Shown in pieces: positions 6,569-47,698 of a stretch of DNA of 64,000 nt. This stretch comes from Sedimentisphaerales bacterium (GTDB lineage Bacteria; Planctomycetota; Phycisphaerae; Sedimentisphaerales; Anaerobacaceae): positions 5,568,001 through 5,632,000 of the forward strand of contig OY970194.1 in the NCBI GenBank assembly GCA_963708075.1, read 5' to 3'. The notes under the pieces are model-generated. The model ran no database searches. It saw only the letters and a list, made by a program, of their open reading frames with translations, and was not told the origin of the DNA. A program made the position numbers and the translations under genes. The first letter of the stretch is position 1, and every line of letters starts with the position of its first letter.

Positions 6569-9026
6569 CTATTCATATCTCAGCGCCGTCATAGGATCGA
6601 TCCTTGCAGCCCGGTGCGCGGGAAGATAGCTGGCTACTATTGCCACGAGGAATGTGGTTGCCGCCGCGGCCGCGATAATCCATGGGTCATGCGGGCTGAT
6701 CTCGTAAAGGAGACTCCGCAGGAACCGGCCTATCGCTAGTGCGCCTGCAACCCCCATGAACAGGCCGGCCGCGACCGGCGTCATCCCCTGCCGCAGAACC
6801 ATGCCGTAGAGGTGCCGGGGCAGCGCTCCGAACGCCGCGCGAATGCCGATCTCTCTCGTCCGCCGCGTTACGGAGCAGGATACGACCCCGTAAATGCCCA
6901 GGCCGGAAAGCACAAGGGCGCACCCGGCAAATGTGGAAGCCAGGAGCGTCTGGAACCGTCGCGGTGACACGGATTCCGCCAGCAACTCGCTCACGGTGCG
7001 CATCCTCGCGATCGGCACATCGGGGTCTACGCTGTGAACGGCCTCACGAACGGAGCCGGTAATCGATAAGCCATCGCTCATGGGCCGGGCCACGACGACC
7101 ATGGAAAGCACATTGAAGGCCGATGCCCCCTCCCAATAGGGGCGGTAGACCATAGTCACGAGTTGTTTGTCCACGTTCGCGCGCACATCCCCCACGACGC
7201 CGATCACTTCGAAGATCTCCTTTTCACTTCGCGCAAAGCTCCGTCCCAGCGGGTCCTGTCCCGGCCAGAGAGTCTGTGCGACTCGCTCGGAGATGACTGC
7301 GACCCGATGGGTCCGGTCGGTTCTCGTTGAACGTGCGGCCGGACAGGAGCGAGATGCCCATCGTGCGGAAATAATCGCTGCTGATGAACCGCACGTTGGC
7401 CATGGGACGCTCAAGAGGCGGACGGGAATCCCCGGGCAGAAATGCACCGTCGACACAGGTTTCGCCTTGGAGCGGCAGCGCGCTGACAATCGCCGCTGAA
7501 TGGATTCCGGGCGAAGCGGACAGGGATTCGAGCAGCCGCTGATAGAACTGATAGACTTGCTCCACCTTGCCGTACCTGCCGGCGGGCAGCGTGATTTCGC
7601 TGGCGAGCACCGTCGGAGCGTGGAAACCCTTATCCGCCTGGATCACTCGCGAGAAGCTGCCCAACAGAAGTCCCGCCGCAATCAGGAGCATAACCCCGAG
7701 GGACACCTGGGTGGCGACAAATATGTTGCGCAGATGAACTGCACGGATCGTGGCAGTGGTGCGTCTGCCTGTCGTAAGCACATGCTCCCCCCGGCTTTGC
7801 GCCATGCGCCACGCAGGCAACACACCAAACAGCAGCGACGTGGTCACGGTCAAGGCCAGGGCGAAGAGCAGGACGCGCCCATCGATGCGGGCCTCATCCA
7901 GCCGGGGTGTATCCGCCGGCGAGAGGGCGATCAGGGTGTCCAATCCCATTGCGGCGATCGCCACTCCAAAGAGCGTGCCCAAAGCTGCCAAAAGCAGTGC
8001 TTCGACCAGAGCCTGGCGGAGCAGTTGCGCGCGGCTTGCTCCCAGTGCGATTCGGACTGCCGAGTCGAGGCTGCGGCGTTCCGCCCGCACAAGATTGAGG
8101 ATCGCGAGGTTCAGGCAGGCGATGAGCAGCACCGAGCCGATCGCGCCCAACAGGATCGACAGGCCGCGCTCGGACCTTTCCACGATCGCCTCTTTCAGCG
8201 GCTTAACCGCGGCACGCAGGCCCACGTTCTCGCCCGCCATCTTCTCAAGCTGCGGCGCAATCCCGTTCAGCTCCGCCAGCGCTTGCTCGCTCGTGACGCC
8301 CTCCTTCAGACGCGCGATGACGCCATAGTTGAACATGCCCATCAACTCATTTTGCTCCGGACCCGAAAACACCTTGGGTGTGAATACCTGCGGCTCCGCG
8401 CCGGCGGCCACCCAGAGCACTCCGATCTCGTTCGCCGTTGGGAACCGGAATCGCGCCGGCAGCACGCCGATCACCGCATAGACTTCGTTGTCCAGCGTGA
8501 CCGATGTGCCGATGATCGAAGGGTCGGCATGGAACCTTCGCCGCCACAGTCTGTCGCTGACAACCACCACATGGTGCTGCGCGTCAGTTTCCTCTTGGGC
8601 CGCGAAAGTCCGTCCCAGTGCCGGCCGCACCGCAAGCGTCTCGAACACATTGGCCGAGACTTGCAGCGATGCGAGGGACTCAGGCTCACCGTTTCCAGTC
8701 AGCGTCATGGGGCCCGATCCGAACAGAGAGATGACAGACAGGTTCTCAAAGGATGAGCATCTCTGCCGCCATTCCATGAAGTGCCGGGCATTGACCGGAA
8801 ACAGGGGATACTTGTCCGCGAGGGCGGGAATGATTTCATGCAGACAGACGAGCCGACCCGGCTGTGGGTACGCCAGCGGCCGCAGCAGCACGGCGTTGAC
8901 AATCGAGAACACCGCCGTGGTAGCGCCGATCCCGAGCGCCAGAGTCAATACAGCCACCGCCGTAAACCCGGGACTTCGCACCAGCATCCGAAAGCCGTAC
9001 TTGATGTCTTGCCATAGAGTATCCAT
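6569..9026 (-). CDS. ABC permease, duplicated MacB/FtsX (ADOP-like); +1 frameshift near 7320
   Basis: ORFs 7224..9026 and 6569..7489 join into 818 aa if one base is removed at GAGAACC (GRTFNE-DRTHRVAVIS). Termini MDTLWQDIKYGFRML and PAHRAARIDPMTALRYE. Confidence 0.9.
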
Positions 9027-9063: not shown

Positions 9064-9080
9064 TGCAAAGGGTATGCCAG
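9064..9080 (-). promoter_or_regulatory. Sigma-54 (-24/-12) promoter
   Basis: Minus strand CTGGCATACCCTTTGCA = TGGCA..TTGCA with exact GG-N10-GC spacing, ~40 bp upstream of the permease start at 9026. Confidence 0.8.
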
Positions 9081-28333: not shown

Positions 28334-28804
28334 TAGTTGTCAGTTCACAGTTCTCAGTTCACAGTTGTCAGTCCGCAGACCTGCCTTTAGGCGGTCGGGG
28401 CTGGCGCAGCGATTTCCGCAGACCGTTGATCATTCTCCCGACCTCTTCCGTCTGGGCAAAGAAGCGATGGGCCACTTCCTCACCTATGTACCCGATTCGT
28501 TTTGCGATCTCTATATGAGTCTCCAATTCGGCCACGGAGCCATGAGCGATCGACAGGTGGTGGAGGAACTCTTTTCTGTGCTGGCGAGCCTGGCCTTCGG
28601 CAATATTGGCGGGGACCGACACGGCTGCCCTCTGGATCTGGCCCGTCAGACCATACTGCTCACTCGCTGGGAATCTCCGCGTAGTCTCGTAGCAGCGCAC
28701 CACGACATCCATGCTCTTCCTCCAAACCTCCAAATCCCTATAGCTGTTTCCTCTCACAGCTTTTCTCCTTCTTCTGCCAACTGTCAACTGTCCACTGCCA
28801 ACTA
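28334..28804. mobile_element. Candidate element: heptamer-repeat inverted arms enclosing a four-helix-bundle gene
   Basis: (CAGTTNN)n arm at 28334-28373 and (NNAACTG)n arm at 28774-28804 flank CDS 28368..28757. Mobility is inferred, not shown. Confidence 0.5.
28368..28757 (-). CDS. Four-helix-bundle protein (23S rRNA IVP family, Avd-like fold)
   Basis: SYRDLEVWRKSM...FPASEQYGLTGQIQRAAVSVPANIAEG...FLHHLSIAHGSVAELET; GTG start at 28757 after AAGGAG. Confidence 0.93.
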   Translation of the reverse strand: MRGNSYRDLEVWRKSMDVVVRCYETTRRFPASEQYGLTGQIQRAAVSVPANIAEGQARQHRKEFLHHLSIAHGSVAELETHIEIAKRIGYIGEEVAHRFFAQTEEVGRMINGLRKSLRQPRPPKGRSAD

Positions 28805-30064
28805 CTTCAATCTGATCCTGTCACAGCTATCCCATTGGGACATGTCGCTCAATATGATCTCGTCACCCACTTGCAGGCCGTCGAGGACCTCGATTGTACT
28901 GACGGAGCTGCGGCCGAACTGTGCCCGGGTCCGCACCGCGTGCTTGCCGCCCTCGATGACCTTGAACAGCTCCGTGATGCCCTCGGAGGAGGCATAGACC
29001 GGCCGGCCGACGTTGAGGACATCGTCCAGTCGCTCGATCTCGATCGTGCCGACGACCGACAGGTCCGGCCGGGCCCCTTCCGGCAGCGTGCCCTTCAGCG
29101 AGACATCCACCGTGACGTTCCCATCCATAACAGTCGGGTCGAGCCGGGAAACCTTTCCTGAAACCGTCCCATGATGCGTATCGACGACAGCCGCCAGGCC
29201 GATTCGCACGTCTCTGGCCTGGGCCTCGGGGATCTTCAGTTGTGCCTTGAGCTGCCGGGGATTGGTGATCTTGGCCAGGATCGTGCCGGGGGAGATGGCT
29301 TGACCGGGCTCGATCTTGTTCGCGACCTGGGCCAGCACGCCGTTGGTGCCCGCCTTCACTTTCAGGGAGTCCATCTCATTGCACTTGAGCCTGTAGCGCG
29401 ATTCCGCCTGCTCCACGGCCGCCTGGGCCTCGGCCAATTGCGCGGGCATCGTCTGCGTGCGGTACATGTCCAGACGCTTTTTCCTGATTTCAAGGAGCTG
29501 CGCCGATTGTGTGACGCGCGACTTCGAGAGCGTCAGTTGCAGGTCCGAGATCAGGTCGCTCTCGTACTGCTTCTGGTCCACTTCCGCCCGGAGCTTGTTC
29601 TCCTCATGATTGGCCTCCGTCAGGGCCAGGTCCGCCTGCATCCCCAGCAACTGATCGTCCAGTTGGGCCGTCTGCGAGATCAGTTTCGATTGCGCCGAGT
29701 TCCACTGGGATTTGGCGTCCAGCAGCTCCAGCTCCAGCTCGGGATTATTCAGCTCCAGGAGCAGGGTGTTGGGCTCAACGATGCTGCCCGGCTCGATGAG
29801 GATTCGTGTGACTCGCCCTTTGACCTCCGCGGGAATCCACAGAATGTCCTCCGAGACGAGGGTGCCGACGCCGCGAACCTCCCGAAGCATGGGCCCGCGT
29901 TTGACGGTGTCCAGCCACAGGGTCCGGCGGTCCACCCCCGGCGCCGCCGGCTCCAGACGGGACACGCCCACGGTGACAACAGCCACCACGATCAGGCCCG
30001 TCGTGCCGATCAGGCCCCGTCGAATCATCTTCATGCGTTTCGCTGATTTTCGTGGTATGTCCAT
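28802..30064 (-). CDS. Efflux periplasmic adaptor (MacA/HlyD-type membrane fusion protein)
   Basis: MDIPR start, one TM helix, VKRGPMLREVRGVGTL, coiled coil, GLQVGDEIILSD. Confidence 0.92.
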   Translation of the reverse strand: MDIPRKSAKRMKMIRRGLIGTTGLIVVAVVTVGVSRLEPAAPGVDRRTLWLDTVKRGPMLREVRGVGTLVSEDILWIPAEVKGRVTRILIEPGSIVEPNTLLLELNNPELELELLDAKSQWNSAQSKLISQTAQLDDQLLGMQADLALTEANHEENKLRAEVDQKQYESDLISDLQLTLSKSRVTQSAQLLEIRKKRLDMYRTQTMPAQLAEAQAAVEQAESRYRLKCNEMDSLKVKAGTNGVLAQVANKIEPGQAISPGTILAKITNPRQLKAQLKIPEAQARDVRIGLAAVVDTHHGTVSGKVSRLDPTVMDGNVTVDVSLKGTLPEGARPDLSVVGTIEIERLDDVLNVGRPVYASSEGITELFKVIEGGKHAVRTRAQFGRSSVSTIEVLDGLQVGDEIILSDMSQWDSCDRIRLK

Positions 30065-30076
30065 GCTAAGCCACCG

Positions 30077-30093
30077 TGCAAACAGTATGCCAG
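30077..30093 (-). promoter_or_regulatory. Sigma-54 (-24/-12) promoter
   Basis: Minus strand CTGGCATACTGTTTGCA with GG-N10-GC spacing, directly upstream of the first operon gene. Confidence 0.82.
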
Positions 30094-30284: not shown

Positions 30285-33200
30285 TCACAGCGACAATAAG
30301 AACGCTGTCAGATCCTTCAGCTCCGCTGTGCTGAGGGTTGAGGTCTTGCCGTGGCGGTCGCCCGGATTGAATTTGGTGAGCACTTCTTCGAGCGTGCCCG
30401 CCCGGCCATCGTGGAGGTAGGGGCGCTGCGCCAGAGTTCAACCAGGCTTGGGGCATCGAATGCCTCACCGGCCTCCCGACCGGTCCCGGTGCCGACGTCG
30501 CAGGCCTTGAGAGACGTGTAAAGGGGTGGTGCGTGACACTCCATGCAGCCGGCCTTCTCGAAGACGCGCTTTCCTCTTTCAGCCGTCTGCTTGTCGGCTG
30601 CATACGGGCTCGGCAGCGGCTCAAGAGACTTCAAGTAGGCGTCAATGGCAGCGGCGTCGGCCTCCGGGCGCAACACGAACTGGATGTGGCGCAGGCCCGC
30701 ACGCACGGCGGTTTCCGCTGTCTCGCGGACGCCCAGGCTCATCACCGGCGGCGTGCGATGCGCCCACAACATGCTCCTGGTATTCTTGGGCGTGCCCAGG
30801 CCGTCGTTGAGCAGGTCCCAATTCAGGCCGTCCGCTCTCGCGTCGGGGTGACAACTGGCGCAGCTTTGCCATCGCTGGAAGCACAAGTCCGCATCATGGA
30901 AGAGCATTTCCCCGCGACGTACCTCGGTCGGCTCCGGCGTCCGTCCCAGTGAGACTGATCCGACCCTGTTCTTCTCTTCCGGCTTCAGTTGAACGGTGGC
31001 TACGGAATCAGAGAAGTACTCGGCGGCGTAGAGGATCTGCTCTGCGACCGCGATGCCCCGCGGTCCCTTGCCTTGCAGCCGAACGCGCCGGCGCAGATCA
31101 CCGAGAAACGTCAGATCGCTCGATACGTTCTGCGAGTTCGCGCCGAGCTTTCGATGCAGCCCCGGCCGGTCGATGATGCTGACCTCGTGTGTGCCCGCGT
31201 GGCTCACGCACAGCCATTGGCCGTTACCGGTGCAGGCTATGTCCCACGGATTGGCGGCCCCCTGGTCCACGTCGTCGAGCAAGACCGTGTTAAGCCATTT
31301 GAGGCCGGCCACGTCGATGATGCTCAGGGCGCTGGTGTTCATCCAGCCCCGATCCACCTGCGTGGTGGGAAGCTGATAATGGGCCAGCGTGTGGGCAACA
31401 TATGCATAGCGGCCGTCCGGCGACACACAGATTCCGCGGACGGAGGTGCTGCCGTTGGGCAGACCGATGCGGGCCGCGATTTTCAAGTCGGTGGTGCTGA
31501 CGGCAGTGACTTCAGCGGCGACAACCGGGCCGGTAGCAGGTCCGGCGGGCAGGAGGCTTGCGACCAGCACAAATTGTCCGTCCGGCGTGCGCGCTACTGC
31601 GACAGGTTCCCGACCGACAGGCAACTCGCCTTTGATCTTTTGTGTCGTCAGATCGATCGCCAGCAGGCGCGAGCGGTATCGGTCACACACGAAGAGCGTA
31701 GTCCCGTCCTTGCTGAGCACCGGCGCCGTCGGACTGTGCCCGGCGGCAATCCGCGCACGTACGACGCCGGTCTGAGGATCGATGACCAGCACAACTCCCT
31801 GCGGCAGACCCCCCGTGACATAGAGACTCTTGCCGTCCGGGGAGATCGCAATACCCGACGGCGCTTCCGGCAGGGGGATTCTCCGAGATACGACGGAGAT
31901 CGCCCGATCGATGACGAGTACTTGGCGTCCTGTGGCCGCGACGACGTAGAATTCGGTTCCCTCGTTGTTCGCTGCCAGCGCTGATGGTGAGAGGAAGGCA
32001 GGGCTCGCGTGCTTACCTTCTTCCCTTCCTACCTTCTTACCTTCATCACCGGCGTGTGCTGCCAGGCCTGCGGTCTGCGCGGGCCATTCGGCAAGGCTAC
32101 GTCGCTCCAGCTCCTCCATGCGCCGGCGTTTTTCGAGGAAGTGCCTGTACTTCTGTAGGTCCTCGTCGTTCCACTGGCTTGCCTCTGTGTAGTCGCCGCA
32201 GAAGGGGACTTGAAGATCGATCCAGCAGGCGAGCTTCTCAATCTCCTCCGGCGCAAGTCGTGCGTCGTAGTGGCCATCCGCCAACAGGGACAACAACCGG
32301 CTGCGGGCCGCCCCGGCGGCGTACGGCGTAAGCAGCGGGGGCACTGATTGGGCCCCGACCCAATTCACCAGACCGTCCGTTGTGCCTGCGAGATAACGAT
32401 TGCCTTCCAGCGTCTTCTCTGTCGCTTGAACGAGTGCCAGGTAGCTTGTGCTCCACTGCCTCTTGGCGAGGTCTTCGACCACGGGCGTGCCGAGCAGGCA
32501 GGGGGCGGCCTTCCCGGTCGCAGGGGCCTTGCCGTCGTGACAACGGATGCAATGGCGGTCGAGGACAGGCTGGATTTCGCGCGAGAAGCTGAAACCTCGC
32601 GGGGGACCATGAAAAGGAATCAGGTCCTGCGGGCCCGCCCGGAACGCCAGGCTCGGCGCGGGTTTGACGGCCGGTGTGTCGTTCTTCGACTCATGACACC
32701 CGATGCACGAGGCGTTCTCACCCGGCTGCAGGGTCATCCAGCTCCGCATCGTCTGCACCGCGTACCCGCGGGCGTCGATGGCCTGGAAGTAGAGAGGCAT
32801 GGCGCGGGCACCGTGAAGAACGCCGAGCCGTCAGGGTGAACGGTGGCGTCGCCGAGCACGACCTTCACGTCCCAGCTCCCATTGCCTATAGCCACCGGCG
32901 TGCAAGCCAGCGCATCGCCCGCCGGGCCGGCGTTGTAGTTCCAGCCGACGCCGGCGGCGCGATACTCAAGGCCGATCACGCGGATCTTCTTCACTGTGCC
33001 GCGAGCGATACCGGTTAGTCCGGGGCCTGCGTAGATGTCTTGCAGATAGCAGGTGCCGGTGGTCTTCTCATAATTCACGACGCTGGGTCGGACGAGGGGG
33101 CGCGGCCGTGCCGTCAAAGGTATAGGCTGGCCGCAGGAGAAATCCGGATCAGCCGCCAGCAACTCCCGGCGGCCATTCGCGGCGATCCAGTACAGCTTGA

Positions 33201-34806
33201 AGAATGTGGGAGAGCGGGACCAGCCCAGGGGTGTATAGGCCACCACGAATTCAGATTCAGAGAGTGGATAGGGATACTGAAACAGATCGCCGTCCTGTCC
33301 GTAATAGTCGATGCGCTCGGCAGGCGTCTCGCGGACCGGGGCGATCAATTGGGTGCCGGCGTTTTCCTGCCGGCCCTTGGCAGGGTCCACGATTCCCAGC
33401 TTGCCGACCTGGCGCGTGTGGTGGCCTGAGAAGATGGCGACCACTTTCTGCGTGCCGGGAATGCCGCGGGCGTGCAGCAGCGAGGTGGGAAACCAGGAAT
33501 TGTTCGCGTAAAACTCGGTCTGGCCCGTGCCGTCGGGATTCATCTGGAACAGGCCCTGGACAAAGAGCTGGCCGCGGTCCTGGTATTCCCAGCGGGTATA
33601 GACGACCCGCCCGTCCGGCATCACCATGGGGTAGTTGTCGTGGACTTGATCGAATGTCAGGCGGCGCATGTAGCGACCGTCACGGCTGCACGTGTACAGG
33701 TTGCTGACCTCCGTCCACCAGCAATCCACCGTCTGAACGCAGCGAGTGGAGTTGAACAGAATGTCGTCGTTCGGCAGGTAGACGCACTCATAATCCGCAA
33801 AGCCAAGCCCTTCGGTCAACTGCTTCACCGAGCCGTCCGCGACGCTCATCTCGTACAGATGGTAATCGTCCTCGCGGTCGGACTTCTTCCAGGCGAAGAG
33901 CACATGCCGTCCGTCCCACGACACGTCCGGGTCCCGGATGACGCCGTTGGAGTCCTCGATCAGTGTTCGTACGCGGGCCCCGGTTTCTTCGAGCTCAAGC
34001 CGGCACAGCGCTGCCCCCGGCTCGAACTGCCGCTCATGCTGGGCGTCGGATTGGCCCTCGGTATAGGCGTAGTGCGAGCCGCCCAGGATACAATGCTTCG
34101 TGAAGATCCATCGCGGATATTGCTGGCGCAGGTTTTGCAGTCGCCTGTCGCGGCGCAATTCCGCGGCGCGGAAGTAGAGTTCGAGCCATTGCTTCGGTTC
34201 GGCGGGTGTGGACCGACTCACGAGCCGGTCAAACTCAGCCTGCAAATCCCGGCCGGTCGCTCCCAGCGCCGCCAGCACGTTGGCCGTCGCCTTCTGCGCC
34301 ACGACCGACACGGTGGACGCCGACAACCATGGGCCGAAGTCCGGCCCCGCATCCTGGAGGCACCAATCCCACGGCACCGGGAACTCCCGCTCGCCCCGGA
34401 TGGAGAACTCCTCGGCCGCAGCGGTGAACGTCTCGCTGTTCGGGTCGAGCGGCGCCATCTCGGTCTGCGCTCCGAGCACAGCCGCCTGCCATGCCTTGGC
34501 CTGGTCGGACAGTGACGCCGCATCGGCTGCCGGGCTCGTGCCTGGACACCAGCAGAGCCAGAGAGCCCCGATTGCAGTAAGCAAGATGGACTTTGACCAG
34601 CCTCGTAAAGATGAGAGGCCTGGGTGGCAGCGGCAAGCGGAGTCTTCGGAGCTTGCCGATGGTGTTGACGCACATCCCGCGAGCCATCGGCAAGCTGCGC
34701 TTGCCGCTGCCACCCGCCATGAGTCTTGAATGCGGAACAGTGTACACGTACCTTGACGCGGGTGGATGGGCTTTAGTCCATGCGGACGCCTTGCAGCATC
34801 GTTCAT
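30285..34806 (-). CDS. HzsA-like beta-propeller/c-type haem protein fused to a YVTN beta-propeller and a di-haem cytochrome c domain; two single-base deletions (~32802, ~30421)
   Basis: ORFs 32734..34806 and 30317..32800 join at FTVPA-x-MPLYFQAIDARGYAVQTMRSW. Four CxxCH motifs (CIGCH, CIRCH, CASCH, CMECH). Restoring one C gives SAPYLHDGRA...LTAFLLSL* ending at 30285; 4522+2 nt = 1507 aa plus stop. Confidence 0.8.
34622..34715. repeat. Inverted doublet of a REP-like unit GGGTGGCAGCGGCAAGC..GCTTGCCGATGG
   Basis: Copies at 34622-34662 and 34684-34715 (inverted); the family recurs at 53039-53070, 57868-57901, 63306-63337 and 63351-63386. Confidence 0.85.
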
Positions 34807-35939
34807 TACTTTCTCACCTCATTGCCAAGGGGCCGCTCGAAGTACTCGCGCCATACCGCGTAGGCGGGGCGGGCATTGCCCTGCTCATCGACAAGCCCGC
34901 AATCGCGCCACGCCATGAACAGCTCCGGCGCGGTCGCTTTGATTTTGTCCCAGAGTGCATCGTAGTCGCGGTGGATGAACAGCACGACAAACTCGAAGCG
35001 GCGTTGCTCGGCCAGCGCCAGCAATGTCCGCACGTAGGCGGCCTGCTTTTCGGGCGTGCCGTTGATCACGATCTTGCTTTGTGGAAAGACCAGCCGGTCG
35101 CCGGCCTCGTTGGTCTCGACCATGGCGTAGGGCTTGTCAAACCGGTCGAACTTCTCCGTCATCCACGCCAGCGCCTTCTCGGCGGGTTCGCCCGCCAGGA
35201 AGGGATAATAACTGACCGCGACGAAATCGTTGAACGGCATCAACTCCTCCCAGGTGGCCAGCATCGGCCCGCGATCTTTGATCATATTGTGCAGTGTGAA
35301 GGACGCGAAGATCGGCAGATTCGGATGCTCCTTCTTCAGCTCGCCATAAACGTAGCGATGGAGCTCGACATACGCCCGCCACTTCTTGACGCCGGAGTTG
35401 AAGATCTCGTTCACTTCGATGCCGATAGCCAGGTAGTCAGGCTTGAAGAAGTCGATGCAACGACGGCAATAGGTCAGGAACGCCCGCTTGACGAGAGGAT
35501 CGTCGTACGATTTGCCTTTCAGTTCCGGCGGCAGCGGCGTAGCGCCCTTGTCGGGCAGCTTGAGATCGCCGCGACCCGGTGACACGGCCAGATATACCTT
35601 CGCCCCCGGCGGTTTCATGGAGCGCTTGGACTCGTGCTCACTCACGAGTTCCTTCGGAAAAGGCACATCCTGCAACGCCTCGGCCCAAGGCACGCCTTCA
35701 ATATGGTGGGCGATGAGATCAGCGTTGTCACGTACGAACTGCCGGGTCTGCTCGACCGCCTCGATGCTGATATCGTGCGGGAACGCCGTGAACCCCATGC
35801 GAAAGGGCCGTAACCGCTCCGCTTCCGCACTCAGGTCAATCGCCATGCCCAGGAGCAACACCAACACAGCCACGGCTAACCCGTAGTCGCTCCTCCGCAT
35901 TCGGATACCACACGCGATGTTGTGTAGTGGCGTTCCCAT
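34806..35939 (-). CDS. Secreted glycoside-hydrolase-like TIM-barrel protein
   Basis: Hydrophobic signal; PDYLAIGIEVNE, FVAVSYYP, KPYAMVETN, DCGLVD..GNARPA resemble clan GH-A motifs; family not assigned. Confidence 0.65.
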   Translation of the reverse strand: MGTPLHNIACGIRMRRSDYGLAVAVLVLLLGMAIDLSAEAERLRPFRMGFTAFPHDISIEAVEQTRQFVRDNADLIAHHIEGVPWAEALQDVPFPKELVSEHESKRSMKPPGAKVYLAVSPGRGDLKLPDKGATPLPPELKGKSYDDPLVKRAFLTYCRRCIDFFKPDYLAIGIEVNEIFNSGVKKWRAYVELHRYVYGELKKEHPNLPIFASFTLHNMIKDRGPMLATWEELMPFNDFVAVSYYPFLAGEPAEKALAWMTEKFDRFDKPYAMVETNEAGDRLVFPQSKIVINGTPEKQAAYVRTLLALAEQRRFEFVVLFIHRDYDALWDKIKATAPELFMAWRDCGLVDEQGNARPAYAVWREYFERPLGNEVRK

Positions 35940-36010: not shown

Positions 36011-36361
36011 ATGGCTGACCCGGCAACCATAGAGACTGTGCGACGATACCTGCGAAACCTCGCACAGCAGGGCATTCTGGCTCGCATGGGGATCATCTTC
36101 GGCTCTCATGCCTCCGGGCATCCCGGTAAGTGGAGCGACATTGATTTGGTAGTGGTGTCCCCGATGTTTGACGGCCTGTTCTCACGAGAGACCGTCAACC
36201 GCCTATGGCGCGTAGCCGCACGCACGGACAGTCGGATCGAGCCCATCCCCTGCGGCGAGCGTCAATGGGCCGAGGATAACACAACGCCCATTATCGAGAT
36301 TGCCCGCCGGGAGGGAGTACAGGTGGTACCAGATGGAAATGGAGCCGGTGAGACAACCTGA
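36011..36361 (+). CDS. Minimal nucleotidyltransferase (MNT) domain protein
   Basis: IIFGSHASG..KWSDIDLVVVS motif; 116 aa. Confidence 0.88.
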   Translation: MADPATIETVRRYLRNLAQQGILARMGIIFGSHASGHPGKWSDIDLVVVSPMFDGLFSRETVNRLWRVAARTDSRIEPIPCGERQWAEDNTTPIIEIARREGVQVVPDGNGAGETT

Positions 36362-36510
36362 ACGAGGTGTCATTTGCCAATGGTCTGATCTTGGCCCTGC
36401 GCCTCAGAACATTGCGTCCTGTTGCCGGTAATGGTATCTTGTTGGCCGACACATGGCCGCCTCACAGCGAATGACGGAATATATGTTCTGGCGAGAAAGG
36501 AGATCAGGAG

Positions 36511-36918
36511 ATGGCACGGACCTTCAACGAAGCGATCACTCAAAACCCGAATAACGACGAGGTCAATCTATCCGCGATTAGGGCACTCCAAGCATGGCAA
36601 TATCTCATTCCGAAGGCTAAGAACCGCCAGCTCGTGAAATACGATGAACTGGCGACGCTGATGGGCTATGCGAACAACCACCCTCTGCGGTTCATATTGG
36701 GTCACATTATGCATTATTGTCAACAGGAAGGCTTTCCCGCCCTGACTATCATTGTAGTCAACAACGATGGGACTCCAGGCGAAGGCTTCACGGCGGTGCC
36801 ACGTGATCAGTTTGACGCTCAGCGTGAAAGGACCTTTGGTTTTGATTGGTTCTCCGTTTATCCTCCGACCCCTGCGGAATTCACACAGTCATGGGACGCG
36901 GCCCAGCGACAGCAGTAG
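36511..36918 (+). CDS. Hypothetical protein, possibly winged-helix (lower GC)
   Basis: SD-like AGGAG; VKYDELATLMG...LGHIMHYC..GFPALTIIVVN.DGTPGEGF pattern. Confidence 0.7.
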   Translation: MARTFNEAITQNPNNDEVNLSAIRALQAWQYLIPKAKNRQLVKYDELATLMGYANNHPLRFILGHIMHYCQQEGFPALTIIVVNNDGTPGEGFTAVPRDQFDAQRERTFGFDWFSVYPPTPAEFTQSWDAAQRQQ

Positions 36919-37034: not shown

Positions 37035-38354
37035 CTACGCGAGGGGCAGTCGCAGGCAGGCTCGGCAGCCGGGTTTGTCGGGGTGGTTGGCCAGGGTCAG
37101 CGAGCCGTTGTGCGCTTCGGCGATCTGGCGGCTGAGAGCCAGGCCGATTCCGGAGCCGTACTGCTTCGTCGTGTAGAACGGTACGAATGCGTTTGTGTCC
37201 TCCGCCAGACCGGGGCCGTCGTCATCCACGCGGACCTCAAGCTCATTGGCGTCGATCCGCCAGCCGATGCAGACTCGGCCGTCTCCCGCCGGGTGAGATT
37301 GCTGGCTTGCCTCCACGGCGTTCGAGATCACGTTGATCAGCAGTTGCTCCAGTTGATCGCGGTCGGCTCGGATTCGTACCGGCGGGCCTTCCTGGACCGT
37401 CGCCTCCATCCGGGTTTCAAGCTCCGCCACTCGGCGAAGCAATTGCGCCACGTCCACTTGAGAGAAGGTTGGGTGGGGCAGATGCATCAAGCGGGAGTAC
37501 GCGCCGATGAACCGGGCGAGGGCCTCGGATCGCTCGGCGATCAGTTCCAGGCCACCCTTCAAATCCTCCTCCCAATCCAGCGGCAGCGGCCGTCGGGCGA
37601 TGATCGCTCGCAGACTGTCGGCGACCGACTGGATGGGCGTCAGGGAGTTGTTCACCTCGTGACGGACCGTCCGGATCAACTGCGTCCAGGCGCGTCGTTC
37701 CTCCTCGTGCAGCGTGCGGGTCAGGTCGGAGAGGAACACGAGCTGATGCGACACGCCTTTTTCCCGATAGTCCCCGCGGCGCAGCTCCCAGCGTCCGGAG
37801 CCGCCCGGCAATGCGATGTCGAGCACGCGGGGGGTCTCGCCCTCCAGGCACTCGGCCAGGCCGAGCTCGCTCGCCCGGCAACCGAGCAGCTCCTCATCGG
37901 TCCTGCCCAGCAGGCGTTTGCCGCTGTCATTGACTAATTGGAGCCGCTGCCGGCTGTCGAAGCCGAACATCGCGACATCGATCTCCGCAAGGACCTTGCG
38001 AAGCAGGGCGGTCGCTTCCATCGCTCCCAGACGTTGCTCGCGCAGCGATTCCGCCAGGGCATTGACCTCCCAGATGACCTCGCCCAGCGCGTCATTGAGC
38101 CGAGCGCCCCGGGCCCGCAGGGAATAGTCGCCTTCCCGCAGCGCTCCCAGCAGATTGGACAACGTGCGAAGCGGAAAGACGACCTTGCTCTGGATAGTAA
38201 ATGCGACCCCGACCCAGATGAGCGTGATCAGCACGCCCAGCGTCACTTGTGTCCGCAGGGCGTAGTTCGAGTCCCACAGCAGGAAGAAAGACGCTGTGGA
38301 ACCCGCCAGTCCAGATAGCAGGCCAAGCGTCAGGATGCGATGTTCGTACTTCAT
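37035..38354 (-). CDS. Membrane sensor histidine kinase (HAMP-PAS-HisKA-HATPase)
   Basis: Two TM helices; H-box HEVNNSLTPI, N-box INVISNAVEA, DDDGPG, FVPFYTTK, GSGIGL. Confidence 0.93.
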   Translation of the reverse strand: MKYEHRILTLGLLSGLAGSTASFFLLWDSNYALRTQVTLGVLITLIWVGVAFTIQSKVVFPLRTLSNLLGALREGDYSLRARGARLNDALGEVIWEVNALAESLREQRLGAMEATALLRKVLAEIDVAMFGFDSRQRLQLVNDSGKRLLGRTDEELLGCRASELGLAECLEGETPRVLDIALPGGSGRWELRRGDYREKGVSHQLVFLSDLTRTLHEEERRAWTQLIRTVRHEVNNSLTPIQSVADSLRAIIARRPLPLDWEEDLKGGLELIAERSEALARFIGAYSRLMHLPHPTFSQVDVAQLLRRVAELETRMEATVQEGPPVRIRADRDQLEQLLINVISNAVEASQQSHPAGDGRVCIGWRIDANELEVRVDDDGPGLAEDTNAFVPFYTTKQYGSGIGLALSRQIAEAHNGSLTLANHPDKPGCRACLRLPLA

Positions 38355-38356
38355 GA

Positions 38357-38443
38357 GTTGCGATTTACCAGTTGCGATTTACGATTGTTGGGATTCGAGC
38401 CGTCACGAACAAGCCTGAAATCTCAAATCTCAAATCGCGATTC
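38357..38443. repeat. Degenerate heptamer-repeat hairpin between regulator and kinase
   Basis: CGATTTA-type units on the left, (AAATCTC)n on the right. Confidence 0.6.
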
Positions 38444-38445
38444 CC

Positions 38446-39855
38446 CTATCCAATCCCATACTTCTCCAACCGCCGGTACAAGGCGCCGCGGCTGAGGCCG
38501 AGGGCCTCCGCGGCCTTGCTGATGTCGCCCTGGGAACGCGCCAGCGCATTCTGGATCATCATCTGCTCGACCTGCTCCAGGGTCATGTTCTCGATCTTGC
38601 CGCCGGTCTCGGGCCTGGCCTCCAGGCCCAGATCGCTGGGCTGTACGGTGCCGCCGTGAGCCATCAGGACCGCCCGCTCGATGGTGTGATCGAGCTCTCG
38701 CACGTTCCCGGGCCAGGAGTAATCCAGCAGCGCCTGCATCGCCGCTGGGTCCAGACCGGCAAGCTCCTTGCGGTACCGTCCCGCGTGCCTGGTGAGGAAA
38801 TGAGCGGCCAGTAAGGGGACATCTTCCTTTCGCTCTCGCAAGGGCGGGACGCGAATTTCCACCGTCTTCAGGCGGTACAGCAGGTCCTGCCGGAAGCGTG
38901 CCTCGGCGACCTCCTTGCCAACGTCGGCGTTGGTGGCCGACAGAATTCGAACGTCGACGCGGTGGGTTTTCGAAGACCCGACCGGCTCGAACTCGCCGCT
39001 TTCGAGCACGCGGAGCAGCTTCGATTGCAGGTTAGCCGGGATGCTGGCGATCTCGTCAAGGAACAGTGTCCCGCCGTCGGCCAGCTTGAACCGCCCGATC
39101 CGGTCCGATTTGGCGTCGGTGAAGGCGCCAGCGACGTGGCCGAACAACTCGCTCTCGAAAAGGCTGTCCGGGATGCTCGCGGTGTTCACGGTCACGAGGG
39201 ATTTGTCCTTGCGGGTCGATGCGGCGTGCAGAGCCTGGGCGACAATCCCCTTGCCCGCCCCGTTTTCCCCAGTTATCAGCACGTTCGCCTGCGACGGCCC
39301 GATCCGAGCGATGGCTTCAAGCACCGGCCGCATCGCGCGGGCCTCGGCGATCAGTAGCGGCTGGGCCTCGCTTCGAAGCAGGAAATTTTCCTGCTCAAGT
39401 TGTCGCCCCTTGCGCAGGGCCCGGCCCAGCTCCACCTGCGTGCGCAAAACAGCGAGCAGCCGCTCATTCTTCCACGGCTTGGTCACGAAGTCGCGGGCCC
39501 CGCGTTGCATCGCCTCCACGGCCAGCTCCACGCTGCTCCAGGCCGTCATCACCACCACTGGAAGCGTGCTGTCGATTTGTTGGATCCGGGCCAGCACGTT
39601 AAGCCCCTCCTGCCCCGACGTATTGCCCCTCGCGTAGTTCATGTCCATCAGGACGACGTCCACGTCCTGCCGCCGGATCGCCTCGATGACCGCCTCCGCC
39701 GAGCCGACGGTCTCGATCTGGTAGCCCTCGCCCTTGAGGAGCAGCCGCAGCGCCTTCAGCACGCCCAACTGGTCGTCCGCCACGAGAATCCGCGGCGACA
39801 CCGGCCCCGCCCGGCTCATCCCGACATCCACGCCACCCTGTTCATCTATCGCCAT
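38446..39855 (-). CDS. Sigma-54-dependent response regulator (NtrC family bEBP)
   Basis: Receiver ILVADD/LMDMN; GENGAGKG; ESELFGHVAGAFTDA; LFLDEI; WPGNVREL; Fis-type HTH. Start could be a later ATG (MSRAG). Confidence 0.95.
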   Translation of the reverse strand: MAIDEQGGVDVGMSRAGPVSPRILVADDQLGVLKALRLLLKGEGYQIETVGSAEAVIEAIRRQDVDVVLMDMNYARGNTSGQEGLNVLARIQQIDSTLPVVVMTAWSSVELAVEAMQRGARDFVTKPWKNERLLAVLRTQVELGRALRKGRQLEQENFLLRSEAQPLLIAEARAMRPVLEAIARIGPSQANVLITGENGAGKGIVAQALHAASTRKDKSLVTVNTASIPDSLFESELFGHVAGAFTDAKSDRIGRFKLADGGTLFLDEIASIPANLQSKLLRVLESGEFEPVGSSKTHRVDVRILSATNADVGKEVAEARFRQDLLYRLKTVEIRVPPLRERKEDVPLLAAHFLTRHAGRYRKELAGLDPAAMQALLDYSWPGNVRELDHTIERAVLMAHGGTVQPSDLGLEARPETGGKIENMTLEQVEQMMIQNALARSQGDISKAAEALGLSRGALYRRLEKYGIG

Positions 39856-41789: not shown

Positions 41790-41945
41790 CTGCATTTTCA
41801 TTCCGCATTCCGCAATCATCATTCCGCATTGCGCGTCCCGCGCCGGCTCCGCATTCCGCAATCCGAAATCCGCAATCGCCCGGCCCCGCCGTGCCCCCAC
41901 CGACTACCGACTACCGGCTACCGACTACCGGCTACCGACTACCGC
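41790..41945. repeat. Heptamer tandem repeats (ATTCCGC)n and (CGACTAC)n
   Basis: CATTCCG CATTCCG CAATC... and CGACTAC CGACTAC CGGCTAC CGACTAC CGGCTAC CGACTAC read directly. Confidence 0.85.
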
Positions 41946-42892
41946 CTTTTCCCCTTGCAGGCTTCGCCTGCACTCGCCATAATACCGTCAGACATGCACC
42001 TCTGATGAAGCTGCGACAAGTTGGTTGGTGGCCCATACGGGCCGGACAGATGTGGTGAGGCCAAAGAAGACGCGGGGATTTGCGGAAAGTGAAATGTGTA
42101 GGTGCGACCCCCGGTCCTCCCGAGAAGTTGGTTGGCGGCCCCCATGGGCCGGACAGATGTAGTGAGGCTGAAAGATGACGCGGAGATTTGCAGAAAGTGA
42201 AATGTGTAGGTGTGACTCTCAACTTGCTCGGTGGCTTTTTTGTTGGTGCCGCCCCATTGTTTGAAGAAGAAGGGGGCTTTGGCGGCTATGCACTGGTCGC
42301 GGATGTCGATTACCCACTCGTGCGGCATGGGGCGAGCGCCGGGGCCGGACTCGCCGCCTAAGATGGCCCAGCCGATATCGGTGAGGTCGATGTTGGGGAT
42401 GGGACTCAACACGGGTTCGAGCGAGAGGAACTTCACCGCCGCGCCGGTTTGTCTCAGGTGGTCGATGCGGTAGGTGTAGTCGCTGTTCTCGACGGTGACG
42501 CCCATCCAGACGTTGTCGGGCCATGTCAGGCGGGGGCTGAGCTCTTTCAGTCTCTCGGAGCGTTTTGTCAGGATCTGGAAACGGTGCTGGTGGGCGCGGC
42601 GCATCACGTCGAAGACCTGCTGGATGAAGTCGAAGGGTACGTCTTTGTGGAACAGGTCGCTCATCGAGTTGACGAAGATCGAGCGGGGCTGTCGCCAGTG
42701 CAGCGGCAATTCGAGCATGTGCGCGTGAAGGGTGAGGCGGAACCCGTTGCGGTAGTTCGGCTGGCCCATCGCCTGCAGCCGGCGGGCCATCCGCTTGGCG
42801 TAGCAGTTCTGGCAGCCGGGGCTGACCTTTGTGCAGCCGGTCACCGGGTTCCATGTACATTCGGTCCATTCGATTTTCGAGTTTGCAGCCAT
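41939..42892 (-). CDS. DUF5131 / phage Gp37Gp68 family protein (radical-SAM-like) with aberrant C-terminus
   Basis: [64 protein letters not shown]. Confidence 0.92.
42014..42228. repeat. ~107-bp tandem duplication
   Basis: 42014-42120 and 42121-42228 share AAGTTGGTTGG, GGGCCGGACAGATGT and GAAAGTGAAATGTGTAGGTG. Confidence 0.9.
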
Positions 42893-44402: not shown

Positions 44403-47400
44403 CTACTTGTGTGCCGTGCCGGGTGTGCCGAACAGAGTCACGGCCCGCCAATTCTTGCCGAGATTGTTGTCGCTGGATACATCCATCAATTCAATGGTGT
44501 ATCCGGTTCCCCGGGCCGTCTGCGGCCAGGGAGCGACCGATCTGTAATCAACCCGGTCGATGACCTTGTTCTTTGGGTCCAGGACACGAAGGGATTCCCC
44601 ATCGCCGCTGAGTCCAAACCCAAGATTCCCCAGGCGGTCCTTGACATTGGGATGGATGGCTTTGAACTTGATTCTGTCCTCGCACAATACCAGATAGCTA
44701 TTGGGCCAGAGTACGGTGTCTGCAGGAAATGGATACGCGTGTCCCGCGCCGTCGGTGAGCTGCCATCCCGTCAGGTCGATGGCGGTGGCGGTACGATTGT
44801 ACATCTCAATCCAGTCGTCGCTGTCCGCCTCGGGGGCGGACGCGAAGTTGATTTCCGTGATGACGATCGGATCTGCGATGGTCGTGGCGGCCGCATTAAG
44901 AAAGGCGGTGAGTTGAACGTCGCCCGAAGGTGTGATCTTGATCTCGGGGGTATCGACCCGCTTCGTTTGAGCGACGGCAGAGGTTTCGCCGGACAGGGAA
45001 CAGTCGAAGCTGATGTCGGAGCTGCCCCTGCCGCTCTGGTGGATCTCCACGGCCAGGGTGTTGACGCCGGACTTCAAGTGAGCGGGAGAGACTTGAAACT
45101 CGGCAAAGCTGTTTTCATTCCCCTGAGAGGCCGGTGTCGCGGAATAAATGCTTCCTGATGGCATGCCGAAGCGTGCGATTTCCCGGCCGTTCAGATAGGC
45201 CACGGCCCCGTCATCCACCAGTAGAAAAAGCGACAACGAATGAAAACGTGTGATGTCGGTCAGCTCGAACGACTTGCGAAAATAGGTGGTGATATACTTG
45301 CGGTTCGCATCCCCGCCGTAGCCGACCACCGTGGCTTCATCTCCATCGCCGTAGCCGAGTTGGGCCGGGCCGGAGGGCCATGCCGTGTCGTTATAACCTG
45401 TCTGCTGCCATGCGGCGCCAAGGTCCGCTCCGGTGTCCGAGTATTTCCAGACGGATCCCGTGGACACAAGTTTCTCTGATGAGACCACAGTGGATGCAGC
45501 TTCCCAATGCGAGAAGGTGTACCCCAACCCGGGTGTCGCACGTACGACGATGGGAATATCGTTGAAGTACATCCCCCGGAATCCGTCGCGGAGTCGCTTG
45601 CCGTTGATTTGAAGCACGGCGGAATCCGGGACGTGCAGATCGAGGCGGATCTCGGAAGTCCCGCTCAACCCGAAGTGGTCGAGAACATGGCGTGTGGTCC
45701 TGGCGGGCCGCTCCACGGCAAAGACTCGCATCTCGTCGACATTCTGTTCCCAGGCCGCCATGGAGTCGAATGTAGGATTGATCCAGGTCTCCAGTGCATC
45801 GGGATCTTTCTGTCCTCCCCATCGGGTGATATGTCGCGGCATCTCGGGCGCCAGCGCCCCTGGAATTGATCGACGAATCCCACCAGACGCTCCGGATTGA
45901 AGGTGGTATTCATGTGATAGGCATAACGCTGGACAAACTCATTGCGAAAGCCTTCATTCTTCAGCAGGTTTCTGAATAGGCGTGTGGACCACTCCGAATT
46001 GGGCCAGCCTGTGCCCAAGGCGGTAGTCGTTCTCTCGATCATGTCCTCTTCGACCCACCCCAGGTCGAAGGATTGATCCATGTCGTAGTTGATCCACCGC
46101 CACCGCGCATGAGGTCCCGAGTCTGCCCGCCAGTATTTGACGTTGTTGCTGGGCCAATCCCTCTCCGCCAGGTAGATGTGGCCGATCATGTAGTCGATAT
46201 ACTGGTCGATGTCCATCTGAGCTTTGACGACCTCGTAGTGCGCGGGATCGGCCATGTCATGGGTGTTGGCGTAGTTCACCATGGCCGCGTAGCCGGAATC
46301 GGTCCCTACGAGAACGACGCTGTTGCCTCCCAGCAGATTCACTTCCTCCGGGTCAATGCCGAAGTTCCCGGCGACGTAGTGCTCATTGGTCTTCTCGCGA
46401 ATATTGTGGATGCCCCAGTATTGGCCGTTGATGAAAACGACCGCCGGGCGGTAGGCCTGAACGTCAACGTCCATGTATTCCACCAACACCATTTGTGATA
46501 TGGCATCACGGAAAAAGGTGTGTACCTGATCATCTCCCGAACATCTCAGGATGAAGGATTCAAAACGGTCGATATCCTTGTCCGGGAAGAGTTGATACTG
46601 AAATGACCCTTTGCCATACGCCTGGCGTGCGAACAGGGCCAACGCTCTCTGAGGATATCGGTGACGCGAACAACCGCCATGGATTTTCACGCCGGCGGGC
46701 TGATTGAAGCCCAGGCTCCCGTCCATTTCATACAGCTCAATATTCACAGGTCGTTCCCAATCCTGCTTCACATTGCTGATGGTGCTGTCACAGTAGCTAT
46801 CCTTTCCGTTAGTGCCGGTCACGTAAATCCCGCGTTCGTCGCTGAAGAAATTGTCCGGGTCCGTGACAATCGAGATGAAGGGAAGATGGACCGCCTCATC
46901 GATAAAATAGGTGTGCGTGACAACCGCACTGGGTGCAGCACCGTGTTTGTAGCCGATGGCGCGGACCGCCGTGGTGGCCTTCAGAGTGATCGGGGCCCGA
47001 TAGGGTAAGGCGCTGTCATCCGGCGGTGTCCCGTCGAGGGAATAGTAGATATCGATCTGCCCGGAATTCTGGAAGCGGAGCGTCTGGGTTCCCTGGTAGA
47101 ACCCTCCCGTGATTGAGAAAATCGGCTGTGGCGTCACCTGCACGCTATCTTGAGGGTCATTGGCTGCCCCGGGGCTGGGTGGACTGAAAAAGCTCCACTG
47201 ATCCGCATCGTTTGCCAGACGCCCGTACGACATATCATCCTGCTGCGCGTCGAAGCTCAGCGTATCCACGGGAGCGCCACCCGGCGCATACAGGCCGAGT
47301 TGCTCCCCTTCTTTGTCCAGCTTGAAATTCGTGTGGAGTCCGGTATTGCGACCATCGGCCCACAGGAGAAGAAAGCCGGTTCCAGGAATCCGGGTTCCGT

Positions 47401-47698
47401 CCGGGATCCGCCACTTCAACGGCTCATCCAGGTCATCGGTCAGGTAGTAGCCGCCAAGGTCCACGGCTCCGGGGGTCGTGTTGTGCAGTTCGATCCAGTC
47501 GGAGAATTCCTTGTACTGGGGATCCGTGTTCACCGTTTGGTTGGACGTGAGAAACTCACTGATCACGATCTCGGGCGGTTGACCCCACGTTGTCGTATGA
47601 AGGACGAGAAGGACATGCAGGCTCAACGCGAATTGTGCACGTGTATTCAAGGCAAACGCTCCCTCTAAAATATCCATGAATGAACGACATCGCCGCAA
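44403..47698 (-). CDS. CotH kinase family protein with lamin-tail domains; single-base deletion near 45858
   Basis: LTD (ISEF, DWIELHN), FN3-associated segment, CotH motifs (FINGQYWGIHNIREK, DWPSNN, WRWINYDMD). Adding one G to CAGGGGCG joins FQ-G-ALAPEMPRHITRWG. Exact start uncertain. Confidence 0.88.

Follow-up and report, generated by a model that had tools for sequence, protein, structure and literature searches.

The gene and its domains

The window analysed here, a stretch of 64,000 nucleotides (positions 5,568,001 to 5,632,000 of contig OY970194.1, assembly GCA_963708075.1) from a Sedimentisphaerales bacterium, carries on its minus strand a gene at 30285..34806 for a tetra-haem protein that unites in a single chain counterparts of hydrazine synthase (HZS) subunits alpha, beta and gamma. 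HZS is the defining enzyme of anaerobic ammonium oxidation (anammox), and its origin is debated. As assembled, the gene falls into three pieces in different frames: A, of 669 aa (34806..32800), B, of 794 aa (32800..30419), and C, of 44 aa (30419..30288, with the stop codon at 30287..30285). They join at DGSAFFTVPA/MPLYFQAID (A/B) and ELWRSAP/YLHDGRA (B/C). The original prediction, made from the letters of the DNA, had described one long exported polypeptide with the parts of all three HZS subunits, and every motif that it quoted (DGSAFFTVPA, MPLYFQAID..AVQTMRSW..QPGE..SCIGCHE, CASCH, CMECH and APYLHDG) was found.

The order of the domains is a signal peptide, a helical region and a TolB-like propeller, the HZS_alpha middle domain with the first haem site, a second haem site, a linker, a seven-bladed YVTN propeller and a di-haem CCP-type domain. 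Profile and fold searches thus bear out the prediction that the two propellers, the HzsA-like middle domain, the second haem and the di-haem domain belong to one gene. The start codon overlaps the stop codon of the upstream gene (TAATG) and opens the charged n-region of the signal peptide, MNDAARRPHGLKPI (34765..34806); alignment to the N-termini of relatives places the hydrophobic core and probable cleavage region, LLTAIGALWLCWCPGTSPAADA, at 34519..34584. The alpha-like N-terminal part, with the helical region and the TolB-like propeller, spans 32968..34512 according to a predicted model and its fold match in the PDB, and is followed by the HZS_alpha middle domain (PF18582, 32690..33000), which is cut by the first of two frame breaks. 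Within this domain lies a motif resembling haem site alpha-I, CIGCH (32693..32707), with Asn at position +4 where anammox HzsA has a Tyr ligand, and beyond it an alpha-II-like motif, CIRCH (32537..32551).

A helix and a low-complexity linker (31994..32167, B residues 212-269) connect the alpha part to the beta part in frame and contain no hydrophobic stretch, so that the prediction of an in-frame junction with no new signal peptide is confirmed. The prediction had also named reads with a stop and a separate start near 32000-32100 as what would speak against a fusion; in the assembled sequence the same frame runs from alpha into beta-gamma. The beta-like YVTN propeller occupies 30941..31993 and the gamma-like di-haem domain of CCP/MauG type 30288..30931, the latter with its haem motifs CASCH (30848..30862) and CMECH (30533..30547) and with a family-specific invariant Cys (30881..30883) seven residues ahead of the first of them, the gamma-I motif. 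The whole protein has exactly four CxxCH motifs, namely CIGCH, CIRCH, CASCH and CMECH, and all four are invariant in an alignment of 27 fused sequences, as are C32, C35, H36, E37 and K39 of the alpha-I region.

Relation to the hydrazine synthase subunits

As references for HZS we used the Kuenenia stuttgartiensis enzyme (PDB 5C2V) and the NCBIfam models NF052339-NF052342. The two profile families on which the prediction depended both exceed their Pfam cut-offs: HZS_alpha (cut-off 26.6 bits) is split exactly at the first frame break, with profile positions 1-60 on piece A (36.4 bits) and 63-98 on piece B (48.9 bits), and CCP_MauG (PF03150) scores 30.8 bits against a cut-off of 25.6. The YVTN repeat model TIGR02276 reaches 42.5 bits against 27.85, and TolB models match piece A weakly (E 4e-6). 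Among the NCBIfam models, hydrazine_BC scores best on piece B (1.2e-32), followed by hydrazine_beta (9.1e-27), hydrazine_gamma (1.2e-12) and hydrazine_alpha (1.2e-7); a BC model exists because some anammox bacteria likewise have beta fused to gamma. Piece C continues the hydrazine_gamma match with the last 44 positions of that model (E 7e-5).

When piece B was compared by phmmer with all PDB sequences, it matched 5c2v_B (E 2e-25), 5c2v_C (E 3.1e-12) and residues 525-563 of 5c2v_A (E 1.1e-5), the sole PDB sequence that outscored these chains being an archaeal YVTN S-layer propeller. Piece A had no match in the PDB by sequence, and a fold search was used instead. Both large pieces were folded on alignments of relatives (models mf883a67f1615 for A and mdd53881f3b16 for B). 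Model A has a mean predicted local distance difference test score (pLDDT) of 78.1 and finds 5c2v_A as its best PDB fold match (E 5.5e-17 over 537 columns), with TolB behind it (about 1e-12 over 364 columns). Model B, with a mean pLDDT of 58.6, is confident for the propeller only (about residues 270-620), and this part matches 5c2v_B ahead of all other propellers (E 7.2e-26, template modelling score by target 0.84). A structural match to Kuenenia HZS was accordingly found by fold search for both propeller parts, with 5c2v_A and 5c2v_B ranking first, the haem ligands lying outside the confident part of model B. The alpha-beta-gamma architecture is real, and for each part the nearest solved structure is the HZS subunit that corresponds to it.

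Departures from anammox hydrazine synthase

The match to HZS is one of build rather than of equivalence, as the NCBIfam scores lie far below the equivalog cut-offs: 30 against 800 bits for alpha, 94.1 against 560 for beta, 47.4 against 625 for gamma and 113 against 1250 for the BC fusion. To compare individual residues, the protein was aligned with the true anammox HZS clusters of two Planctomycetota genomes, the alphas of which (L093 and L094) score above 1500 bits. According to PMC12758564, the proximal haem ligand in HZS is the Tyr four residues after the alpha-I CxxCH, alpha Tyr591. The site reads CxGCHDGSY in L093 and L094 and CxGCHExKN in the window protein and its relatives, so that Asn replaces the Tyr ligand in the window protein and in all relatives shown. 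Of the gamma residues compared, Cys165 forms a third covalent link to the haem in HZS, and Asp168 and His144 lie near haem gamma-I; the three align with Gly, His and Ser, respectively, in the window protein and seven relatives. An anammox-specific gamma insert of roughly 35 residues is also absent from the window protein. For clades I-III of non-anammox homologues, PMC12758564 reports that the alpha Cys303/zinc site, alpha His772 and the Mg-binding Glu of the beta loop are not conserved.

The genomic setting gives no sign of anammox either. A search of the source genome, a single contig of 7.5 Mb, with the hydrazine_alpha model NF052339 returned no match at E<=1e-10 and hence no true hzsA, as compared with 17 of 401 sampled genomes of the phylum in which this model exceeds its cut-off. 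In the 64-kb window there are no anammox genes and no HAO-type proteins, as had been predicted, the neighbours being ABC exporters, a two-component system and a gene resembling glycoside hydrolase family 53 (GH53). The multi-haem HAO-type profile PF13447 had no match in the source genome, a weak test given that the control genomes gave none. Because alpha Tyr and gamma Cys165, Asp168 and His144 are all replaced, the chemistry is likely to be something other than the formation of hydrazine from NO and ammonium, and we regard it as likely, judging from these residues, that the protein does not make hydrazine.

Fused and split relatives

The fusion is genuine, as intact fused orthologues exist in metagenome-assembled genomes (MAGs) of Phycisphaerae and Sedimentisphaerales. 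A search for long homologues, restricted to proteins of at least 1391 aa, gave 26 clusters (P0001-P0026) with lengths of 1400-1676 aa, which align over the whole of piece B (100%) with identities of 41-83%; those with a named source come from Phycisphaerae or Sedimentisphaerales MAGs and are annotated as 'hypothetical protein' or 'c-type cytochrome'. The split form is also present. At least 579 stretches in one-genome-per-species data, across many phyla, encode a relative, and in the 80 best loci from GTDB the commonest layout, seen in 38, is an alpha-like gene directly upstream of a beta-gamma gene of roughly 620 aa. The alpha gene is directly downstream in 3 of the 80, fused in one (L008) and missing within 1.5 kb on the same strand in 23, the remaining 15 being impossible to judge. 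With both forms at hand, the survey of fused against split homologues that had been proposed supports the Rosetta-stone logic of the prediction.

Among 1.84 billion cluster representatives (50% identity), 1078 score E<=1e-30, and the best 150 of these are mostly about 600-650 aa long. The domains of the 22 that have at least 866 aa were scanned, and seven of them carry HZS_alpha and beta-gamma in other architectures, to which P0006, the cluster of the window protein itself, adds an eighth. Among these variants, P0188 has the order reversed, and in giant forms the parts are separated by FGE-sulfatase, PKD or PA14 domains. Other architectures were noted in P0188, P0122, P0128, P0158, P0071, P0166 and P0092, among them beta-gamma joined to a BlaR1-type M56 peptidase or to a protein kinase.

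A beta-gamma tree with 106 rows requires five changes of the fused label, of which the starred branches force at least two. An alpha tree of 67 rows places the window protein in a clade of 36 with a support of 100, and the nearest rows outside this clade are two Verrucomicrobiota split pairs. The fused clade is thus placed beside split pairs, and the alpha/beta-gamma fusion arose several times, from genes that were already adjacent.

A further 72 metagenome loci were found with P0001. The gene is fused in 11 and divided into separate alpha and beta-gamma open reading frames (ORFs) in 12, beta-gamma stands by itself in two, alpha occurs with no beta-gamma after it in 30, and in 17 alpha is cut by the contig end. 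One of the 30, L133, was placed there by the score threshold although a cut beta-gamma ORF comes after its alpha. Both strands of 28 of the 30 alpha-only loci were searched, and 27 had no beta-gamma. In L100 there is what looks like an internal deletion that joins the N-terminus of alpha to the end of gamma.

The source genome has a second, split HZS-like pair (L095, 722183-727833 of the genome), in which an alpha ORF of 1268 aa, measured from stop to stop, is directly followed by a beta-gamma gene of 645 aa; the C-terminal part of this alpha reads as FGE-sulfatase-type, a judgement made from its translation. Three further HzsA-like paralogues are encoded in the same genome. The Pfam HZS_alpha profile also exceeds its cut-off in Bacteroides thetaiotaomicron, one of the control genomes; this glycan degrader of the gut is in culture and might lend itself to work on an HzsA-like protein.

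Frame breaks and a repeat element

The prediction that two single-base deletions have to be repaired is borne out at both sites, each of which shows a one-base gap against all 11 related DNA sequences aligned there. At break 1 (32801..32802), within a GCGCGC stretch, one base is missing (GCGC-CATG): the window reads GCGC-CA and the relatives GCGCGNA, and the restored reading is VPA-R-MPLY. At break 2 (30420..30423) the window has four consecutive C, seen as GGGG on the plus strand, and the aligned relatives have five bases (GCCCCCTA and similar). Programmed frameshifting at the breaks was ruled out, as the relatives read straight through both sites. The public sequencing runs that contain the stretch are freshwater-sediment metagenomes, one of which (X1) differs from it at only three substitution sites across 4.7 kb. 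An extra base behind 32801 is present in a contig from X1 and in one from a second run (X2), and because these contigs lack break 1, that break is an assembly error. Short-read contigs of the same population thereby settle break 1. Break 2 is probably an assembly error too: the 44 residues after it keep the family-level identity, and the stop is where the family has it.

Other frameshifts were observed in the same assembly. A MacB-type permease gene (6572-9026, minus strand) is split near 7297-7302, which suggests indel errors of assembly, and the HzsA-like paralogue L003 (2796000-2802000 of the source genome) has its N-terminal half in frame 3 and its C-terminal half in frame 1.

A repeat element of 170 nt (34595..34764) is inserted in the signal-peptide coding region, where it separates the charged start from the hydrophobic core (LLTAIGALWLCW...). 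Direct repeats of 10 nt lie on its two sides, AAAGCCCATC (34774..34765) and AAAGTCCATC (34594..34585), and the insertion is absent from 8 of 8 close relatives with comparable N-termini. It is in frame, is free of stops and accounts for 60 extra residues of the approximately 1507, which makes the export of this particular copy uncertain. The 94-nt core of the element (34622..34715) is a nested palindromic hairpin with a fold energy of -81.7 kcal/mol (z -4.6), and its positions are covered, depending on position, by 236-395 of 428 blastn matches in the source genome. At a stricter threshold (E<=1e-5) there are 161 matches of 85-149 nt and one other full-length copy. In the sediment metagenome runs read depth is 87-144 over the repeat, compared with about 2-4 elsewhere. 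Both insertion junctions are spanned by contigs of X1 (records 7 and 8). A search of Rfam with the repeat gave sub-threshold hairpin look-alikes only, mostly plant miRNA families. In L008 the fused gene has a related hairpin at its 5' end (6152-6246). The fused genes of L096 and L097 have some 30-45 extra residues (...STGILPVT..SMGGTPMLR...) in the N-terminal helical region that are absent from the window protein and the other relatives, possibly a further in-frame insertion of repeat origin.

The assembly presents the gene with three lesions, which raises the question of whether it is a real pseudogene with one or two true frameshifts and a mobile-element insertion in its signal peptide. The insertion is supported by independent short-read contigs over both of its junctions, no read data contradict break 2, and the loss of beta-gamma from some relatives implies that selection on this part may be weak. 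Set against this, X1 and X2 contigs lack break 1, the gaps sit in a GC repeat and a C run in an assembly with other frameshifts, no in-frame stop occurs elsewhere, identity is as high past break 2 as before it, and the insertion itself leaves the frame open. A pseudogene seems to us unlikely.

Proposed function

We think it probable that the gene encodes an exported four-haem redox enzyme that is built like HZS and likely does not make hydrazine. In such an enzyme the four CxxCH motifs are predicted to bind haem c in the periplasm, and haem attachment is possible in this organism given the cytochrome c assembly genes of the source genome, in which there are four such matches. The gamma-like domain would have one catalytic and one electron-transfer haem, the alpha-like part would likewise have one of each, and the beta propeller would hold the gamma-like and alpha-like haem sites together as it does in HZS. 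A small oxidant, which could be peroxide, O2 or NO, might undergo activation or reduction at the gamma-like haem, from which the product or an oxidizing equivalent would then pass to the alpha-like haem for a second step.

Several observations weigh against this reading. In model B the pLDDT is below 50 at residues 1-266 and about 641-794, the haem-binding domains, and so the model does not establish haem ligation, the tunnel or the packing of the domains. The repeat insertion parts the n-region of the signal peptide from its h-region and may impair export of this particular copy. At break 2 the cover from X1 thins, and a real, recent inactivating mutation could lie there. Finally, the alpha tree places within the fused clade eight alpha-only genes of about 870-890 aa (L105, L108, L110, L111, L112, L116, L117 and L119) that share 73-79% identity with piece A. 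Four of them (L108, L110, L111 and L112) share the synteny of that clade, with a sigma-54 response regulator, a kinase, the alpha gene and MacB genes, and in L105 the alpha-only gene has the GH53-like gene upstream and MacB downstream. The simplest reading is a secondary loss of beta-gamma in one sublineage, so that alpha can persist with no beta-gamma in cis. The claim that non-anammox HzsA-like proteins work with beta/gamma-like partners is supported by the fused and split forms, with the qualifications that a partner in cis is not obligatory and that the idea is not new.

Genomic neighbourhood and alternative functions

Immediately upstream, and overlapping the start of the main gene, is a minus-strand gene (34806..35939) for an exported protein of 377 aa that resembles GH53 glycoside hydrolases (clan GH-A). 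It has no Pfam match; its nearest Atlas cluster scores 0.99 and carries PF07745 on 21% of its members, and its comparison with a PDB beta-1,4-galactanase gives E 0.14. A GH53-like gene is also upstream in L096, L097, L098, L105 and L106, and is missing in seven fused loci (including L099, L103 and L113) and in L008. Further upstream, at 37035..39855 on the minus strand, are genes for a sigma-54-type response regulator (39855..38446) and a histidine kinase (38354..37035), which are syntenic with the main gene in L008 and also in 19 of the metagenome loci (72 in all). The kinase is separated from the GH53-like gene by a 116-aa nucleotidyltransferase-domain gene and a 135-aa gene (36011-36918, plus strand); this pair, present in some related loci only, looks like an inserted toxin-antitoxin-type pair.

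Downstream, a gene of the HlyD membrane-fusion type (28802..30064, minus strand) heads an array of MacB-type ABC exporter genes and shows synteny in relatives. The array (7224-30064, minus strand) is unusual in its make-up: seven genes are for MacB-type permeases, one is for an ABC ATPase and one belongs to the beta-lactamase family, in addition to the HlyD gene. A scan of the window for the sigma-54 consensus gave five matches against 5.0 expected and none upstream of the main gene; -24/-12-like matches do occur upstream of HlyD (30078-30092) and of one MacB gene (9065-9079), within a total that equals chance. Elsewhere in the window there are a DUF5131/GP88 phage-type gene (41939-42892, minus strand) and a gene for a CotH kinase protein with lamin-tail and chitobiase-type domains (45665-47698, minus strand), and a CotH gene with a lamin-tail domain also occurs near the split pair in L027. 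Across ten loci of the wider family no conserved neighbour is universal.

Some of these surroundings suggest a different substrate, in that the protein could be an extracytoplasmic haem oxidase or peroxygenase that works on complex glycans, or next to them, instead of on nitrogen compounds, a logic comparable to that of RoxA, a di-haem oxygenase that cleaves a polymer. Among HZS_alpha proteins of at least 1391 aa, all 12 that are not alpha-beta-gamma fusions have domains of a glycan-related or FGE-sulfatase kind, drawn from PF03781, PF02638, PF08305, PF13385 and a domain set that we take to be rhamnosidase. Laminin_G_3, dockerin, PKD, PA14 and Calx-beta domains occur in fusions with beta-gamma modules, and the nearest split loci adjoin genes for a fucosidase, an arabinofuranosidase, an NPCBM protein, a BNR-repeat protein and GDSL esterases. 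The overlapping GH53-like gene, kept in five related loci, and the sulfatase-type alpha paralogue of L095 beside its own beta-gamma gene point the same way. However, these are counts with no background control in genomes of the Planctomycetota-Verrucomicrobiota-Chlamydiota (PVC) group, which are rich in such genes, the fusion survey covered long proteins only, and the GH53-like gene is inconstant among the fused loci. Other beta-gamma fusions (BlaR1-type M56, protein kinase, sigma-70 region) point instead to signalling or sensing, and no literature linking HZS-like genes to polysaccharide utilization was found by title or abstract. A role on glycans is thus rather improbable. No greater likelihood can be given to its wider form, in which the HZS-like alpha-beta-gamma modules would be widespread secreted four-haem oxidative enzymes for complex or sulfated glycans in the PVC group and other heterotrophs, with anammox HZS recruited from them later and the single chain as their most compact form.

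That the protein is a functional hydrazine synthase, the mark of a cryptic anammox-type or hydrazine-forming metabolism outside Brocadiia, is highly improbable, since the homologues of all three subunits, the four haem motifs, the HZS chains as best fold matches and the argument of PMC11828985 that HzsA-like proteins in ten phyla are capable of anammox reactions are countered by the low NCBIfam scores, the replaced alpha and gamma residues, the missing insert, the result of the hydrazine_alpha search in the source genome and a like conclusion on related clades in PMC12758564.

Comparison with known systems

The preferred reading, that of an HZS-like redox enzyme with another chemistry, agrees with published work on split genes. 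Reports of alpha genes beside beta-gamma genes date from 2023 and 2025: these papers describe, for Phycisphaerae, fused hzsBC-like genes with an hzsA-like gene upstream of them, with the proposal of a wider enzyme family with other substrates (PMC10732223); co-localized alpha and beta-gamma homologues in four clades that lack the key residues (PMC12758564); and alpha-beta-gamma complexes predicted by AlphaFold-Multimer and taken as anammox potential (PMC11828985). The partnership of HzsA-like and beta-gamma-like proteins, offered in the original prediction as a new inference, had thus already been published in these three papers. In the literature covered, which for them means passages and sections of the main text, we found no mention of a single alpha-beta-gamma chain.

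The single-chain form is a real, recurrent new variant, and as an incremental result it supports the published inference rather than providing a new one. Its value lies in independent genetic support for alpha and beta-gamma acting together, which comes from a natural single chain, from recurrent fusion in different architectures and from the nesting of the fused clade next to pairs of adjacent genes. The advance is a modest one, since gene neighbourhood and predicted complexes had already been published as evidence of the association. For expression and structural studies of the ancestral-type chemistry, the single chain provides a construct of one gene. The non-anammox relatives are numerous, as the counts of loci and clusters given above attest, and HzsA-like matches outside Brocadiia, of which the window gene is one, lack the catalytic residues and should not be counted as anammox potential.

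Three known systems bear comparison with the protein. Like bacterial di-haem CCP/MauG proteins (PF03150), its gamma-like domain exceeds the Pfam cut-off and has two CxxCH motifs and an APYLHDG-type motif. Unlike them, it is fused to a propeller and an HzsA-like protein and has the invariant Cys ahead of its first CxxCH, and the position of the catalytic Trp of CCP/MauG, equated with gamma His144 in PMC12758564, is Ser.

With anammox HZS the protein shares an alpha part with a propeller, a middle domain and two haem motifs, a seven-bladed beta propeller and a di-haem CCP-like gamma, with four CxxCH motifs in all. It differs in being one chain with alpha before beta-gamma, whereas beta and gamma are upstream of alpha in anammox bacteria (PMC12758564 and the true anammox clusters aligned here), as well as in its sub-threshold scores, its lack of the key alpha and gamma residues and of the insert, and its context devoid of anammox genes.

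The third comparison is with the non-anammox pairs of alpha and beta-gamma genes known from Phycisphaerae, Verrucomicrobiota and other phyla (PMC10732223, PMC12758564 clades I-IV and PMC11828985), with which the protein has in common PF18582, a fused propeller-di-haem beta-gamma, the alpha-first order and the lack of conservation of the key HZS residues. Unlike clade I of PMC12758564 it has no extra N-terminal haems, and unlike clades II and III it keeps the alpha-II site. What sets it apart from these pairs is the loss of the stop that would divide alpha from beta-gamma, which leaves all three parts in one polypeptide.

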